Assembly (NCBI GenBank): GCA_964646785.1
Contig: CAZYGU010000024.1
Location: 1 to 12,121 of the forward strand
Length of the DNA stretch: 12,121 bases
Direction of reading: 5' to 3'
DNA from: an uncultured Candidatus Saccharibacteria bacterium
GTDB taxonomy: Bacteria > Patescibacteriota > Minisyncoccia > Phycocordibacterales > Zambryskibacteraceae
The position numbers were made by a program, and so were the translations under genes. The notes beneath the pieces were generated by a model that saw only the letters and a list, made by a program, of their open reading frames with translations, was not told the DNA's origin and did not search any database. This document shows, piece after piece, positions 3,189 to 11,710 of the stretch; within the stretch, counting starts at the first letter, position 1; each line of letters starts with the position of its first letter.

Positions 3189-3224
3189 AACCGCCTAGTA
3201 ACGAAAGTGAACGGCGGTTTTTTG
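3189..3224 (+). terminator. Probable intrinsic terminator: stem aaccgcc / ggcggtt, 17-nt loop, then TTTTTTGTTTG
   Basis: The hairpin starts 17 nt after the stop. The large loop lowers confidence. Confidence 0.45.
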
Positions 3225-3274
3225 TTTGCTAAAAGTTTATACAAAATATTTATCAATACTCTGTAGCTGAATTT

Positions 3275-3283
3275 TGCTATAAT
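3275..3283 (+). promoter_or_regulatory. Extended -10 (TGcTATAAT) ending 6 nt before the ATG at 3290. The transcript is probably leaderless.
   Basis: Consensus TATAAT at 3278-3283. No SD sequence before the ATG. Confidence 0.45.
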
Positions 3284-3289
3284 CCAAAA

Positions 3290-3874
3290 ATGACAGATAC
3301 CACATGGAAGGAATATTTCGAAAATACGAAAAATAGTAATCCGAGACCCTTACTTACTAAAGCAGTTAAGTTAGTGCAAAAAAAGAACGAGGCACTTGAT
3401 CTTGGATCAGGAGCGTTTAATGACGTACACTTTTTATTATCTACTGGCTTTAATCATATCGTAGCAGTTGATAAAGTATCTGTTGCAAACGATCTATTAA
3501 AAAAACTATTACCAACACAAGTTTCTTATGTAATTTCTCGATTTGAAGATTTTGATTTTATCAAGCAAAACTATGATTTGATTAACGCACAGTATTCCCT
3601 TCCATTTATTAATAAACATAGTTTTACAGATGTGTATAAAAAAATAATACAATCACTTAAATCCGGAGGAGTTTTTACTGGCCAGTTTTTTGGTGATAGA
3701 GATGAGTGGAATACAGGAATTAGTAATATGACCTTTCATACCAAAAATGAAGCCTTAGCTCTACTTAAAGGATTGAATGTTATTGAATTTACTGAAGAAG
3801 AGAAAAATGGGAATACCGCAGCAGGAAAACTTAAGCATTGGCATGTTTTTCACTTTATTGCAGTAAAAGAATAA
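3290..3874 (+). CDS. Class I SAM-dependent methyltransferase, TehB-like
   Basis: 194 aa. Motif I 'ALDLGSGAFNDV', and overall length and order similar to tellurite methyltransferase TehB. Low GC (about 35%). Confidence 0.8.
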   Translation: MTDTTWKEYFENTKNSNPRPLLTKAVKLVQKKNEALDLGSGAFNDVHFLLSTGFNHIVAVDKVSVANDLLKKLLPTQVSYVISRFEDFDFIKQNYDLINAQYSLPFINKHSFTDVYKKIIQSLKSGGVFTGQFFGDRDEWNTGISNMTFHTKNEALALLKGLNVIEFTEEEKNGNTAAGKLKHWHVFHFIAVKE

Positions 3875-3953: not shown

Positions 3954-5783
3954 TTAGGCAGCGGGAGAAAGTTCAGACCGCTTCTCGGCCTGGTCGCGAA
4001 TAAGATTCGCGAGCAGAACGTTGACGAGTCCACCGCTCTGACTACCGTCACCACCGCCCGCCATGATGCTCGGGACGATAGGAACCTGACTCTTCGAGAG
4101 AGAGTCGGCAACCTGAATCAACGCGTAGTTGTTCGGGTTGATTGCTTCACCCTTCTTCTTGAGAACGTCGGCTTCGGCGTTACCAATAGCCTGGATCTTT
4201 CCGGCTTCGGCAGTACCAGTGAGCGTCGTCACCTCAGCATCAGCCTTGGCGTTGATTGTCTTCGACTGCGCGTCACCTTCCGCTGTCTTCACCATGGCGG
4301 AAGCGTTGAACTCGGCGATTTGCACGCTCCGTTCGGCATCCACGACTCGAGCTTGCGTATCCGCAAGTGCACGAGCTTGCTGAAGTTCCTTGCGGACCCC
4401 TTCAGCTTGCCGCTGAGTTTCGTACGTTACTTGCTCCTGCTCAGCGATTTTTCGGTCTGTCAGTGTCTTCATCAGCTGTTCTGGCGGAACGATATCACCG
4501 ATCAAGGTGTTCACCGCACCGACATTGTATTCACCGAGAGCATCCGCAATTGCCTTGCGTGCTTCGGTCTGACGTGCGACTCGATTCTTCAGGAAGTCGA
4601 TCACATCGGAACCCTGTGCCGCGTTTCGGAAATAGTTACCGATCGTCGGTTCGAGTACCTGCGTGACGAGATTCGCCACGCTGCCGAATCGTGCGATAAC
4701 CTTAGGGGCATCGACGCTCGGGATGTGAATGATCTGACTAACATCGAGGTTGTAGGTAAAGCCGTCCGATGAACGAACAGTGATGCTTGAGAGCCGCTCA
4801 TCGAGCTTGTGGGCTTCGCTCTTTTCGTTTGCCCAGTTGAGCACCACGTTTGCCGTCGGGACAACTTCGATCTTGTGAGTGTGCGTATTGATAGGGTACT
4901 TTCCCGGGTCAAGCGGAGTTGCCCAAACACCCTTATTGCCACTTTCCACCAGATTACCGTGCTTGAAATCTGCGCCAGAAATATCGTCACCGTTATTTCC
5001 TACGTAGGAAATAACGACGCCGACATGCGCGATAGGTACTTCGGTCAGACTGATGCGCTCCACCGTAGCGAAGAGCGGGTTGATAAAGTATCGACCCGCG
5101 AGCATCACCTGTTCCTGAAGACCCTTGTAACCTCCACCGTTGATGAACGCCTGGGCATCCTGGAACATGTTATGTCCAGAAATTTCCTTACCGGCAATTT
5201 CACCACCAACAAGTGGTAAGCCTTCCTTGGTGGTGACGATGCCAACCATCTTGTCGGCGATATCAGTCTGCTCAGCATCTCTGACATCGAAAAGCTGAGT
5301 ATTGATTCGATACGTACCTGGCGGAATAACTGCCAGCTGCGGACCACGCTCGCCACCGTTCGTGAGAAATGCTCGCGCGTTCTGAAATGAATCACACGCA
5401 ACGGAGGTACCGAGAACACGACCAGCAGCCATGGGAATACCGTCTCGTGAATCCACGACGCCGATCATTCCCTCCTTGATGGTCACGAAATCTTCCTGCT
5501 CGACACTATACTGCCAAGGCCACAAAAAGTAGTGGACACCGGGAGCTAGTGTATCGGCCTGAATACCAGCTTCGCCGTTCAATGCGACGATCTTACCGTC
5601 AGGCAAGGTCCGATTCGATCCGAAAATCACAAACTTCTTGTTGACGATACCGATCGAGTCATTCGGAATGATGACCACACCGAAGATGCGCAGAACGAGC
5701 TTGTAGCCACCGAGAAGCAAGATGATCAGAACGATCCACCAGTACGACTTCACGAGCCCAAAGAAAAAGTCCAGAACGTCCAT
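3954..5783 (-). CDS. Flotillin/SPFH (band-7) family membrane protein, YqiK/FloT-like
   Basis: 610 aa. N-terminal TM helix (WWIVLIILLLGGYKLVLRIFGVVII), an SPFH core, and a C-terminal Ala/Glu/Gln-rich coiled coil. The true start is the ATG at 5781-5783 with AAGGAG 8 nt upstream. The track start at 5873 is a TTG inside the -35 box. Confidence 0.9.
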   Translation of the reverse strand: MDVLDFFFGLVKSYWWIVLIILLLGGYKLVLRIFGVVIIPNDSIGIVNKKFVIFGSNRTLPDGKIVALNGEAGIQADTLAPGVHYFLWPWQYSVEQEDFVTIKEGMIGVVDSRDGIPMAAGRVLGTSVACDSFQNARAFLTNGGERGPQLAVIPPGTYRINTQLFDVRDAEQTDIADKMVGIVTTKEGLPLVGGEIAGKEISGHNMFQDAQAFINGGGYKGLQEQVMLAGRYFINPLFATVERISLTEVPIAHVGVVISYVGNNGDDISGADFKHGNLVESGNKGVWATPLDPGKYPINTHTHKIEVVPTANVVLNWANEKSEAHKLDERLSSITVRSSDGFTYNLDVSQIIHIPSVDAPKVIARFGSVANLVTQVLEPTIGNYFRNAAQGSDVIDFLKNRVARQTEARKAIADALGEYNVGAVNTLIGDIVPPEQLMKTLTDRKIAEQEQVTYETQRQAEGVRKELQQARALADTQARVVDAERSVQIAEFNASAMVKTAEGDAQSKTINAKADAEVTTLTGTAEAGKIQAIGNAEADVLKKKGEAINPNNYALIQVADSLSKSQVPIVPSIMAGGGDGSQSGGLVNVLLANLIRDQAEKRSELSPAA

Positions 5784-8846: not shown

Positions 8847-9722
8847 TTACAGATTTTTTTCTGCTTCCAAAAATTCTTCGATATCTCCCTCGAGTACAGC
8901 ATCAATGTTTGCGGTTTCTGCATTTGTTCGGTGGTCTTTCACCATTTTATATGGATGCATAACATATGAACGAATTTGATTCCCCCATTCGATCTGAGTC
9001 GTCTTTGATACGTACATTCCCTTCTCTTGCGCGATTCTATCTTCTTCCATTTTCTTATACAGTTTTCCAGTCAGGATTGCGATTGCTTTTTCTTTATTTT
9101 GAGCTTGTGAACGTTCGCTCGTGACATGTGCAGATAGATTGGTCGGAACATGTATAACACGCACTGCCGTCTCACGTTTATTTACGTTTTGGCCACCAGG
9201 TCCACCGGATTTTGAAAGTTCAACACGGATATCAGATTCAGGAATATCAATCTCACCCGTTTTTTCAAATTTAGGAATTACTTCAACAAGCGAGAAGGAA
9301 GTGTGTCTTAGTTGTTTTGCATTAAAAGGTGAGATACGAACAAGACGATGTACTCCTGATTCGTTTTTTAGTGTGCCATATGCATCCTTGCCAGAAATTT
9401 CAATTGTTACATTACGATACCCTCCATGATCATTTTGATTTTCATGAAGAAGTGTTATTCCCCAGTTTCTCTTTTGAAAATATTTCATATACATCTGAAG
9501 AAGAATTGCTGAAAAATCTTCAGAATCATCACCCCCCGCACCAGAAAAAATTGTCATGATTGCATCACCTCTATCAAACTTTCCTACACCCGCTATCTCA
9601 TCTTTCAATGTTTGAATATCACGAATTGTTTTTTGTGCTTTTTCTTTATCATTCCAAAAATCAGCAGACATCATATCTGCCTCCATCTGTTCAAGTTGTT
9701 TTTGCTTTACTTCTTTGTCCAT
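8847..9722 (-). CDS. prfB: Peptide chain release factor 2 (compact form without a frameshift leader)
   Basis: GGQ motif (SGGPGGQNVN) and the RF2-specific SPF motif (RISPFNAK). 291 aa. It begins at the residue equivalent to E. coli RF2 position 27. Confidence 0.9.
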   Translation of the reverse strand: MDKEVKQKQLEQMEADMMSADFWNDKEKAQKTIRDIQTLKDEIAGVGKFDRGDAIMTIFSGAGGDDSEDFSAILLQMYMKYFQKRNWGITLLHENQNDHGGYRNVTIEISGKDAYGTLKNESGVHRLVRISPFNAKQLRHTSFSLVEVIPKFEKTGEIDIPESDIRVELSKSGGPGGQNVNKRETAVRVIHVPTNLSAHVTSERSQAQNKEKAIAILTGKLYKKMEEDRIAQEKGMYVSKTTQIEWGNQIRSYVMHPYKMVKDHRTNAETANIDAVLEGDIEEFLEAEKNL

Positions 9723-10298: not shown

Positions 10299-10331
10299 AA
10301 AGGTGCCAGTTTCCCGAAGGAAACTGGCACC
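10291..10331 (-). terminator. Strong intrinsic terminator: 13-bp stem ggtgccagtttcc / ggaaactggcacc with a CGAA tetraloop, then a minus-strand TTTTTGTAACTTTTT
   Basis: Perfect hairpin at 10302-10331 with a U-tract at 10291-10301. It terminates the leftward tRNA transcript. Confidence 0.75.
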
Positions 10332-10536
10332 AACTGTTCGAACATCATCGACCATGACCCGAAGGTTCAAATGGATCGATAAGGTCACGGCTGGCAGCTG
10401 GGTAAAATCCCCCAACCATGCAGACCTGTGCCCCAAACAGTTACCCTTCCTTCAATCGTCACTGAAGAAAAGGTGGAACCAGTATGATATTTACAACTAA
10501 AGAAATCAAGGAGTCGTCTCACCTACTACGTTCGTG

Positions 10537-10609
10537 AGCCACCTCGCGGGATCGAACCGCGGACCCCCACTTTACGAAAGTGGTGCTCTACCAACTGAGC
10601 TAAGGTGGC
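10537..10609 (-). tRNA. tRNA-Thr (anticodon CGU)
   Basis: Cloverleaf: acceptor GCCACCT/AGGTGGC, D-arm GCTCAGTTGGTAGAGC, anticodon loop TTCGTAA, T-arm CGCGGTTCGATCCCGCG. No CCA is encoded. Confidence 0.85.
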
Positions 10610-10631: not shown

Positions 10632-10707
10632 TGGAGCCGTTGAGCAGGATTGAACTGCTGACCTCGTCATTACCAATGACGTGCTCTACCAACTGAGCTA
10701 CAACGGC
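10632..10707 (-). tRNA. tRNA-Thr (anticodon GGU), CCA encoded
   Basis: Acceptor GCCGTTG/CAACGGC, anticodon loop TTGGTAA, T-arm AGCAGTTCAATCCTGCT, 3' TCCA. Confidence 0.9.
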
Positions 10708-10711
10708 ATAT
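10684..10711. repeat. 28-bp direct repeat, copy 1 (tRNA-Thr(GGU) 5' end plus 4 nt upstream)
   Basis: Identical to 10812-10839: ctctaccaactgagctacaacggcatat. Confidence 0.9.
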
Positions 10712-10744
10712 TCGCACTAACAGTCACAAGTATTTTTTTACTAA

Positions 10745-10835
10745 AAAATCTCGCGACCCCTCCTCGCGCCGTCGCGCTCCGGCCTTGCGACTGGGCCCCA
10801 TCCCAGTCTCACTCTACCAACTGAGCTACAACGGC
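10745..10835 (-). pseudogene. Truncated tRNA-Thr(GGU) copy (acceptor 5' strand plus D-arm only) fused to a GC-rich hairpin element and a T-run
   Basis: The first 25 nt are identical to the tRNA-Thr(GGU) 5' end. They are followed by GAGACTGGGATGGGGCCCAGTCGCAAGGCCGGAGCGCGACGGCGCGAGGAGGGGTCGCGAGATTTTTT. There is no anticodon arm or T-arm. Confidence 0.5.
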
Positions 10836-10839
10836 ATAT
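10812..10839. repeat. 28-bp direct repeat, copy 2
   Basis: Identical to 10684-10711. Confidence 0.9.
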
Positions 10840-10861: not shown

Positions 10862-10890
10862 ATCATAGGGAATTTTGAATCATTTTGCAA
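10862..10890 (-). promoter_or_regulatory. Candidate tRNA-operon promoter: TTGCAA, 17-nt spacer, TATGAT
   Basis: On the minus strand, the -35 is at 10890..10885 and the -10 at 10867..10862. It is immediately downstream of the pyrF stop. Confidence 0.4.
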
Positions 10891-10900
10891 AACAAGAGTA

Positions 10901-11710
10901 TTATCTATTTTTTCCAGTAGACATTCGTATCTCTTCGCAGAGTTTCCTTGCTTCCTCCTCTGGATTTTTCGCAAAGATAATTCTCCGTGATGCATTAATA
11001 ATGAGGCCAAGACCATCTTTATTCAGGCCACTTTGTACTACACTTTTTATATTAATTCCCTCGTCACTTACACCAGGAACTAACAATGTCATCTCTTTAG
11101 AAATTTCTCGTACTTTTTTTATTTCCTCAGGATGAGGTGCTCCAACGACTAACATACAATTTCCATTTGTATTCCATTCACTAGTAACTCGCTCTGCAAT
11201 TGTTTGCCACAACGGTTTACCTTCAGAAAGAAGATTTTGAAATTCTTCTGCGCCTGTGTTTGAGGTACGACAAAGAATAATTGAGATCTTATCCTTTCTC
11301 TCAAGAAACGGTGCCATTGCCTCATGTCCCATATAAGGATGGAGTGTCACAGCATCAGCACCGAGCAGATCAAACGCGAATTCAGCATATCCAACATTTG
11401 TATTACTTGTATCTGCACGCTTTGCATCAAGGATAAGAAATATATTTGAGTGATACAAAGCAAGGTAATCAAAGGTCATTTTTAACTCACGAAGTCCCTG
11501 CTCCCCTCGTGCTTCATAAAATGCACTATTCAGTTTGTAAGCAGAAACATATGCATGAGTTTGTTCAATAATCCATGTGTTAAATTCAAACTGTGGAAAT
11601 GGTTTTTGCAAAAAACGTTCAGGAAGTTTTGAAAAATCTGCATCAAGCCCTACACATAGTAGTGAGTTTACTTTTTTTGCTCGGTTGTTGTACTTAATAA
11701 GAGCATTCAT
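10901..11710 (-). CDS. pyrF: Orotidine 5'-phosphate decarboxylase, type 2 (long form)
   Basis: 'LCVGLDA', 'LDAKRADTSNT', 'ADAVTLHPYMG', 'LVVGAP' and 'LLVPGV' match the type-2 ODCase motifs. 269 aa. Confidence 0.9.
   Translation of the reverse strand: MNALIKYNNRAKKVNSLLCVGLDADFSKLPERFLQKPFPQFEFNTWIIEQTHAYVSAYKLNSAFYEARGEQGLRELKMTFDYLALYHSNIFLILDAKRADTSNTNVGYAEFAFDLLGADAVTLHPYMGHEAMAPFLERKDKISIILCRTSNTGAEEFQNLLSEGKPLWQTIAERVTSEWNTNGNCMLVVGAPHPEEIKKVREISKEMTLLVPGVSDEGINIKSVVQSGLNKDGLGLIINASRRIIFAKNPEEEARKLCEEIRMSTGKNR

Follow-up and report, generated by a model that had tools for sequence, protein, structure and literature searches.

A stretch of 12,121 nucleotides from an uncultured Candidatus Saccharibacteria bacterium (contig CAZYGU010000024.1; the whole stretch is called the window here) carries the 5' end of its tRNA-Thr(GGU) gene twice, and the upstream copy runs into a short GC-rich block that is foreign to the tRNA. 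The question raised by this locus is what the block represents. A reading made from the letters of the window (the sequence-only reading) regarded it as the scar of an integrated element or, alternatively, as a leader or decoy RNA. The block (10723–10811, minus strand) is neither the scar of a lost island nor a dedicated terminator. We consider it rather probable that it is a copy of a multi-copy, non-coding, and structure-dependent insertion family of Patescibacteria, which is non-autonomous and mobile. The family membership and structure of the window element are well supported; the mechanism of its mobility is not.

The 28-bp direct repeat described in the sequence-only reading, CTCTACCAACTGAGCTACAACGGCATAT, is exact and occurs only twice in the window, at 10684–10711 and 10812–10839 (0 matches expected, 200 shuffles). 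Read on the minus strand, it consists of ATAT followed by GCCGTTGTAGCTCAGTTGGTAGAG, namely, 4 nt of leader and then nt 1–24 of tRNA-Thr(GGU). The tRNA identity of the upstream copy breaks at the D-arm, as claimed, and ends inside the 3' strand of the D-stem. A foreign block of 89 nt abuts this copy (10723–10811, minus strand), and the GC-rich part noted previously was recovered as 61 nt (10751–10811) with a GC content of 73.8%, versus 42.9% for the window. In the tRNA sense, the upstream copy is followed by TGAGACTGGGATGGGGCCCAGTCGCAAG GCCGGAGCGCGACGGCGCGAGGAGGGGTCGCGAGATTTTTTAGTAAAAAAATACTTGTGAC, the 11-nt spacer, ATAT, and the intact tRNA. The element and tRNA-Thr(GGU) share a strand, the element being 16 nt upstream and accompanied by the 28-nt repeat, and the whole insert at this locus is 100 nt and non-coding. 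Its parts are as follows.

10812–10839, minus strand: upstream copy of the exact repeat, a truncated pseudo-5' fragment ending at the element start; the independent Logan contig L001 has an identical promoter-to-repeat junction.
10784–10811, minus strand: 5' module of the element with hairpin hp0 (TGAG, stem GACTGGG, loop ATGGGG, stem CCCAGTC, and a GCAAG linker).
10723–10783, minus strand: 61-nt core recognized by the covariance model (GCCGGA, hairpin hp1, GAGGAGGG, hairpin hp2 with a bulged A, and the end GTGAC).
10766–10777, minus strand: hp1, GCGC-GACG-GCGC, from covariation.
10723–10757, minus strand: hp2, the long hairpin GGUCGCGAG...CUUGUGAC, from covariation.
10743–10748, minus strand: T-run, the 5' arm of hp2, paired with the A-run at 10733–10739 (fold and covariation, columns 35–41/46–52).
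10712–10722, minus strand: spacer TGTTAGTGCGA, 11 nt from the element to the downstream repeat copy, from reading the sequence.
10684–10711, minus strand: downstream repeat copy, comprising the true leader (10708–10711) and nt 1–24 of the intact tRNA-Thr(GGU).
10632–10707, minus strand: intact tRNA-Thr(GGU) with CCA encoded (ARAGORN; Rfam tRNA, 69.8 bits).

The block is one member of a large repeat family. By blastn, the window core was 82% identical over 68 nt to tRNA-adjacent sequences in L118, L099 (three copies), and L012. A degenerate pattern derived from copies of this type, GCCGGAG N8–38 GAGGNGGGGTCGC N15–45 GTGRC, matched at least 120 JGI metagenome contigs; 4 of approximately 125 pattern loci were judged by eye to be chance matches in GC-rich open reading frames (ORFs). 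The core consensus is GCCGGA-hp1-GAGGNGGGGTCGCG-hp2-YGTGAC (61 nt), and the family is referred to herein as the GCCGGA...GGGGTCGCG...GTGAC element. The covariance model R1 was built from 48 distinct 61-nt cores, and the window core (10723–10783), itself one of these training sequences, scored 82.7 bits (E 3e-16). The closest independent cores, in L135 and L192, were both 97% identical to it. In a set of 100 loci, the model gave 99 further matches at E<=1e-3, and a single locus often had two to five of them.

A second sample was unbiased for the element: species-representative genomes were scanned with the 3' half of the window tRNA-Thr(GGU), which yielded 120 loci. In the first batch, matches at E<=1e-3 were found only with the patescibacterial form of the tRNA (L099, three times; L012; L037; and L064), and the second batch added L108 and L118. 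Three of these six element-positive loci (L099, L012, and L037) have Saccharibacteria in their titles. In loci of this sample titled Alphaproteobacteria, all matches had E>0.1. Two loci of a Methyloceanibacter metagenome-assembled genome (MAG), L089 and L101, carry the 3' half of tRNA-Thr(GGU) but lack a recognizable 5' half; this alphaproteobacterial pair resembles ordinary tRNA 3' remnants of the integrase type and is unrelated to the element.

The sequence-only reading named membership of the GC-rich block in a known RNA family, such as a tRNA with a long variable arm, as grounds against the scar; the block matches no such family, and there was no Rfam 15 match over the window element at the gathering score or E<=10, and none at the elements of 20 other loci. 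No published account of the family was found in the searchable literature, either by topic or by literal sequence strings. These widespread 60–90-nt folded repeats in or beside the tRNA and 5S rRNA genes of the ultra-small Patescibacteria (CPR) are apparently undescribed. Several other identities were considered. A phage origin was rejected because the pattern gave two chance matches among 2.9 million IMG/VR contigs, in GC-rich ORFs with no tRNAs, and matches to GenBank phages were confined to the tRNA part. A split tRNA, an intron-containing tRNA, transfer-messenger RNA, signal recognition particle RNA, Y RNA, and known ribozymes had no ARAGORN or Rfam support. For the hepatitis delta virus-like, hammerhead, and twister ribozymes, the consensus, inspected by eye, lacks the required conserved motifs and pseudoknot topology, the further test being Rfam. 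Group I introns are well over 100 nt long. Patescibacterial group I tRNA introns are reported at position 35/36 (PMC13011429), and, by this position and by intron length, a group I intron reading is not relevant to the element.

The structure of the element was assessed in the regions that the search pattern left free, namely, hp1 (columns 8–17) and hp2 (columns 32–56). In the 48 cores, hp1 and hp2 were paired in 98% of cells, versus 81.7% in shuffled alignments and 31–49% with slid partners. Cells with a double change numbered 160 versus 39.6 in shuffles, and compensatory changes were present in 12 of the 22 pairs. Among unconstrained pairs, G.U-type cells outnumbered A.C-type cells by 39 to 3, and one free pair was G.U in 30 of 48 sequences. 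Since G.U pairs are conserved far above A.C pairs, the fold is specific to the tRNA-sense strand. The hairpin sequences vary freely with pairing kept, while the joining linkers are purine-rich and near-invariant; this invariance is partly circular because the pattern imposed those columns, and only hp1 and hp2 provide a fair test. hp1 is bordered by tandem GA/AG, a 3-bp GYC/GRC helix covaries (GCC..GGC versus GUC..GAC in L108 and L118), and the bulged A of hp2 is near-invariant.

The isolated window element folds into hp0, hp1, and hp2 (-38.4 kcal/mol, z -4.6). The hp0 stem, present in this minimum free energy fold, is compensated in L146, L223, L178, L186, and other copies; ACUGGG/CCCAGU in the window corresponds to ACGGGG/CCCCGU in L146. 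Of the two hairpins proposed by the sequence-only reading, GACTGGG/CCCAGTC was retained with these covarying counterparts, whereas CGCGAC/GTCGCG gives way to the GCGC/GCGC stem of hp1 and the long hp2. The CGACGGC of hp1 (10766–10777) can base-pair with the 5' acceptor strand of the tRNA-Thr pseudo-fragment (10829–10835), and the predicted fold of the 132-nt stretch prefers an alternative long hairpin (-56.1 kcal/mol, z -5.9). The TGCGA of the spacer can also pair with TCGCA directly upstream of the core. Since CGACGGC is the commonest hp1 variant in the family, this complementarity and the long hairpin are probably coincidental.

The genomic contexts of 126 credible copies were compiled. A tRNA ends within 200 nt upstream on the same strand in 79 copies and on the opposite strand in 2, and nearly all isoacceptor families are represented. 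Copies away from tRNAs are randomly oriented relative to neighboring ORFs. GC skew was a weak signal, with 45 of 71 loci positive on the element-sense strand. Three subtypes were distinguished by their flanks. In type A (approximately 60 copies by a crude flank rule), the tRNA is repeated downstream of the core from T-loop C56 to the 3' end. Among 35 copies with an exact repeat of at least 10 nt, the junction is T55|C56 in 31 and one nucleotide later in 4. These repeats have a median length of 20 nt, and 25 of them stop between -2 and +5 nt of the tRNA end. Just before the core stands the repeated segment in reverse-complement form (for example, GGGGAATCGAAA, core, CGATTCCCC), which often continues through the acceptor 3' strand. 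A hairpin, which is frequently terminator-like, separates the tRNA from the inverted copy. When folded, the type A architecture rebuilds the acceptor and T-stem helices of the neighboring tRNA, capped by the core. In type B, a perfect palindrome starts in the 3' end of a tRNA or the end of an ORF and is followed by the core; this architecture was found after rplL in L131, L208, and L232. A copy in L192 (approximately 3190–3290) lies within the final codons of an ORF, to which it contributes a new stop (..GGC ACA AAA GCG TAG), with the displaced original end (CA AAA TAA) downstream of the core.

The window copy belongs to type C (23 copies), in which TGAG-hp0-CGCAAG precedes the core and the left flank is G-rich (...GGGG or GGTAGAG at the junction). 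Intergenic type C copies in L146, L159, L173, L196, L223, L234, and L186 have no flanking repeat. At a tRNA, 5S rRNA, or tRNA-like sequence, the left flank recurs 11–76 nt downstream of the core, and the layout at RNA genes is a pseudo-5' fragment, the element, in some cases a partial remainder, a spacer, and the intact gene. The left-flank repeat was detected in seven of the 23 copies with hp0, including the window (28 nt). Repeats elsewhere were as follows.

L142 and L190: 19 nt, 5S rRNA, identical in two independent assemblies.
L136: 10 nt, 5S rRNA.
L155: 20 nt.
L195: 18 nt, beside an opposite-strand tRNA-Ser.
L235: at least 40 nt, T-loop of tRNA-Gly.
Recognized by eye: L217 (tRNA-Ser), L171 (D-loop of tRNA-Ser), and L099 (tRNA-Met; a copy with no CGCAAG linker).

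Because the partial 5' duplicate lies upstream, an intact gene remains at type C insertions in RNA genes (tRNA D-arm or T-loop, 5' part of 5S rRNA), and insertions in essential RNA genes were found only alongside a duplicate that keeps one gene copy intact. In L142 (10019–10352), L190 (757–1090), and L136 (1103–1308), the element lies between the 23S and 5S rRNA genes, in a partial 5' duplicate of 5S, with the intact 5S gene directly downstream; L142 and L190 have a second, inverted copy just downstream of 5S. Across the subtypes, the junction is fixed in the T-loop or lies at other tRNA and 5S positions that we read as single-stranded.

The element is also gained and lost. Between tRNA-Thr(GGU) and the tRNA that follows it, the spacer measures 6–25 nt in L020, L116, L036, L093, L122, L064, and the window, where the spacer to tRNA-Thr(CGU) has no element. 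It is 144–149 nt with a core in L099 and L012, and 185–248 nt in L118, L103, and L039, with diverged element-like inserts that the core pattern does not match. Since the lengths and contents of this spacer differ among loci, the element is an insertion present or absent at orthologous positions. Nested and tandem copies occur in L178, L182, L141, L241, and L181; in the last (4539–4967, minus strand), four covariance-model matches form a tandem array of approximately 430 nt downstream of a tRNA-like repeat. In the related genomes of L200 and L244, the same insertion at tRNA-Phe differs only at the center of the palindrome that separates the tRNA from the core, a 4-nt loop in one and a 28-nt terminator-like hairpin in the other, which suggests central deletion of long palindromes. 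In L012 (6190–6519, minus strand), a second tRNA-Thr(GGU) 5' fragment, ATGCCGTTGTAGCTCAGTTGG, has its D-loop split by an unrelated GC hairpin of 40 nt. A 79-aa ORF consisting of a GIY-YIG domain (Pfam PF01541, E 4e-15) follows, and then the intact tRNA-Thr(GGU), the same layout of pseudo-fragment and intact gene as in the window with a different cargo. The GIY-YIG endonuclease was rejected as a mobilizer because tblastn found such genes in only 4 of 245 loci.

Taken together, the element is multi-copy, strand-specifically folded, non-coding, and gained and lost. It is probably selfish and non-autonomous, mobilized in trans by an enzyme recognizing a folded single strand of DNA or RNA, and HUH/RAYT-type or hairpin-att-type recombination may be the closest mechanistic model. 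In types A and B, the target-complementary segment may help to select the target or to build the substrate for recombination. The window subtype is inserted with no target duplication; the window copy itself directly follows the 28-nt pseudo-copy of the tRNA-Thr(GGU) 5' end, which stops at nt 24 of the tRNA. The 28-bp repeat may be homology or a duplication that arrived with the element, as the Campbell-type product of a circle containing the repeat, element, and spacer; alternatively, it may be the remnant of a tandem gene copy, the disrupted member of which is decaying. A self-priming origin of the downstream repeat was discarded because the L099 repeat, inspected by eye, matches the tRNA and not the complement of the upstream sequence of the element.

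The element shares features with several known systems. Similar to REP, BIME, and REPIN sequences, which RAYT (TnpA-REP) HUH transposases mobilize, it is a short GC-rich hairpin repeat with many copies per genome in AT-richer genomes; it is mostly extragenic, often just after gene ends, non-coding, and structured as read on one strand, and it occurs as singlets, inverted pairs, and clusters. It differs in its ties to tRNA and 5S genes, the fixed T-loop junction, and the target-derived inverted and direct repeats. We also take REPs to be the reverse of the element, the stems of which vary freely and the conserved residues of which lie in the linkers. No RAYT gene was seen near element copies within loci of up to 14 kb. 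IS200/IS605-derived PATEs and other HUH single-strand transposons resemble the element in having subterminal hairpins, strand specificity, and no terminal inverted repeats, and resemble the window subtype also in the lack of target duplication. However, the T-loop subtype has direct repeats of 16–24 nt, the hairpin sequences of the element are not conserved, and no TnpA was identified for the element within loci of up to 14 kb. In IS608, the guide pairs with the cleavage site over 4 nt. The element likewise has a segment complementary to the flanking target, but over 8–24 nt.

Rickettsia palindromic elements are also selfish palindromic repeats of a reduced genome that enter genes, including RNA genes, non-lethally, with no mobilizing enzyme known. 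These elements are tolerated in frame inside genes. In the present family, the gene copy that is hit is dead and an adjacent duplicate supplies the function, and there is no sequence relationship. As a miniature inverted-repeat transposable element, the candidate failed on both counts: its ends, TGAG... and ...GTGAC, are not inverted repeats, and there is no fixed-length target duplication, since intergenic copies of the window subtype have no repeat and other repeats range from 10 to 48 nt. The IS110 bridge RNA and TIGR-Tas guides (PMC12045711) are similar in concept only, as a folded RNA flanked by segments matching both target strands; the element has no associated gene for a Nop-domain protein or DEDD recombinase, no array, and no internal guide loops.

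Several points weigh against an insertion family of this type. Movement of the element was not seen directly, and no mobilizing enzyme emerged from the loci analyzed. The restriction to Patescibacteria rests, for metagenome loci, on MAG titles and contig sizes, and core columns 1–7, 19–22, 24–31, and 57–61 were fixed by the search pattern. Since no empty allele of the window site was recovered, insertion at this site is inferred from the family and not seen directly; synteny through pyrF homologues revealed no empty site, as the best relatives were at most 69% identical and did not keep the gene order. The only near-identical strain (Logan SRR12487046) is represented by short contigs: L001 ends exactly at the end of the upstream repeat (1423–1456, ...GGTAGAG) and L246 starts inside the downstream repeat, at TAGAGCACG... 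(L246 1–10); these breaks are as compatible with an insertion polymorphism as with low coverage. Selection on rare events, and not the insertion mechanism, could account for the duplications beside essential genes, and the order of target, hairpin, inverted target, core, and target is unexplained by any testable known mechanism. A strand-specific covarying structure also fits a functional RNA equally well.

An alternative that we regard as unlikely is a functional structured RNA, cis-acting or small, with a role in processing, stability, or insulation or similar to a tRNA minihelix, selected beside highly expressed RNA genes. The target segments on either side would pair into a closing helix resembling the acceptor/T-arm stack, to which RNase P, RNase Z, or the CCA-adding enzyme could be recruited. 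The strong covariation with G.U pairs conserved on the tRNA-sense strand, co-orientation with tRNAs (79:2), the tandem G.A/A.G motif flanking hp1, the GYC/GRC covariation in L108 and L118, and the acceptor and T-stem helices recreated by the inverted segment and direct repeat of the T-loop type are consistent with such a role. However, a terminator-like hairpin with a U-run separates many copies from the tRNA, copies of the window type have no closing helix, and there is no Rfam family match. Copies not next to tRNAs show no orientation bias with respect to ORFs, and their random orientation is therefore a weak argument against a role that depends on co-transcription. Presence and absence at orthologous spacers, nesting, and tandem arrays fit selfish spread.

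We give still more guarded consideration to a new kind of mobile element with no protein in cis that finds its targets by base-pairing, which appears quite improbable at present. Immediately 5' of the core lies the target in reverse-complement form (tRNA from nt 56 to its 3' end, a tRNA 3' end and trailer, or an ORF end), and this segment would allow a folded single-stranded circle mimicking the target duplex to integrate, similar to the attP of CTX phage or the attC of integrons. Alternatively, the element might act by way of an RNA intermediate or by ribozyme chemistry at the single-stranded loops of abundant RNAs. Either route, if true, would represent a way of targeting with no described counterpart for tRNA genes.

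The leader or decoy proposal of the sequence-only reading concerns the following features.

10862–10890, minus strand: promoter-like TTGCAA-17-TATGAT, upstream of the pseudo-fragment; consensus match only.
10536–10609, minus strand: intact tRNA-Thr(CGU), 25 nt downstream of tRNA-Thr(GGU) (ARAGORN, Rfam).

An RNA of approximately 95 nt, comprising the tRNA 5' fragment and the GC-rich hairpins, would end at the T-run and regulate or attenuate the downstream tRNAs. The promoter-like site claimed previously was recovered by a consensus scan, 26 nt upstream, the scan flagged CGCGAGGAGGGGTCGCG with the T-run as terminator-like, and a longer transcript would allow pairing between the hp1 region and the tRNA 5' fragment, as described above. 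The ATTTTTT is present as reported, but not as a terminator tail: it is the 5' arm of the covarying hp2, and the test for a Rho-independent terminator, in which the scan gave one candidate, failed for the window element because the U-run pairs with the A-run. At least five Ts occur at the hp2 position in only 28 of 126 cores, and termination is therefore not a property of the family, most members of which lack the T-run. Efficient termination would also silence two probably essential tRNAs with no other promoter-like site upstream, and the arrangement is missing from other fetched loci with the same tRNA. A dedicated leader RNA is accordingly very unlikely. The TTGCAA-17-TATGAT site probably drives a transcript that reads through the element into both tRNA-Thr genes, as judged from the sequence: both tRNAs are presumably needed, no other promoter-like site precedes them, and the scan found no second site between the element and tRNA-Thr(GGU). 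The element is thus probably transcribed passively within the pre-tRNA leader and then removed by RNase P; discarded in this way, it would be harmless at the window locus.

A scar of a tyrosine-integrase island that once occupied tRNA-Thr(GGU) and, on its deletion, left behind attL/attR remnants with a small amount of foreign DNA is very doubtful, and this reading is largely refuted. A tRNA-derived direct repeat does bracket DNA of foreign composition, and this part of the earlier claim stands; the GC-rich block, however, is itself the inserted element and not the residue of one that was lost or lies elsewhere. The T-loop-type relatives duplicate the block from nt 56 to the tRNA 3' end, which we take to be the block duplicated by T-loop-targeting integrases, and the repeat of the commonest subtype similarly reconstitutes an intact tRNA. 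In contrast, the window repeat is the tRNA 5' end (leader and nt 1–24), not the 3' part, and intergenic copies of the window subtype have no repeat. The conserved, covarying 61-nt core recurs at more than 100 other sites, including various tRNAs, 5S rRNA, ORF ends, and intergenic sites. Unlike integrase islands, the whole insert of the family is approximately 100–200 bp with a conserved folded core and an inverted att-like segment, and the 100-nt non-coding insert of the window shows no remnant of a larger island. The search for an integrase suggested by the sequence-only reading found none in the window and none recurring near other copies. There is likewise no transposase, nuclease, or other mobile-element gene in the window, and all-against-all clustering of the ORFs of 116 metagenome loci yielded no family in more than 10 loci, the largest clusters looking by eye like housekeeping proteins. 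In the approximately 120 loci sharing the 3' half of the window tRNA, the 400 nt upstream never contain a further 5' copy. The tRNA-Thr operon therefore does not carry this arrangement as a conserved feature.

An assembly artefact, in which the shared tRNA 5' sequence was joined chimerically so that an element from elsewhere came to stand before the tRNA, is the least credible explanation: two Logan contigs of one sample (L001 and L246) stop at or inside the repeat, and at least one further sample covers the organism poorly (ENA contig L245, cov 1.75), but insertion polymorphism or low coverage explains the breaks equally well, the 28-nt repeat is shorter than the k-mers normally used in assembly, and the same architecture occurs at different genes in independent assemblies (L142, L190, L136, L171, L217, L235, and L099).

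On the minus strand, the order of genes around the element is tRNA-Asp, pyrF (10901–11710), the element with its repeats, tRNA-Thr(GGU) (10632–10707), and tRNA-Thr(CGU) (10536–10609). The named top matches of the pyrF product are from Paceibacterota, Nomurabacteria, and the Patescibacteria group, and other ORFs of the window encode a class-I release factor, ftsE, ftsX, and further housekeeping types. The release-factor ORF (8847–9722, minus strand) is short (291 aa), and its PCRF domain match covers only the C-terminal half. A programmed frameshift was ruled out by the absence of an upstream CTTTGAC site, and the protein is therefore an N-terminally reduced class-I release factor and not a frameshifted prfB. 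Between the small ORFs and the tRNA cluster, a perfect 13-bp hairpin (10302–10334, GGTGCCAGTTTCC-CGAA-GGAAACTGGCACC) looks like a bidirectional terminator or another structured repeat.

The tiny, streamlined genomes of Patescibacteria carry many copies of this element at their most essential RNA genes. With the family missing from Rfam 15 and not found in the literature searched, annotation pipelines will go on listing tRNA fragments with no explanation. Recognition of the family explains these fragments as well as the long tRNA spacers and odd 23S–5S spacers of Patescibacteria genomes, and the element is a marker of recent genome change in uncultured lineages. Its fixed T-loop junction, inverted and direct target copies, and gene-saving duplications point to a mechanism of transposition or integration that is yet to be characterized.

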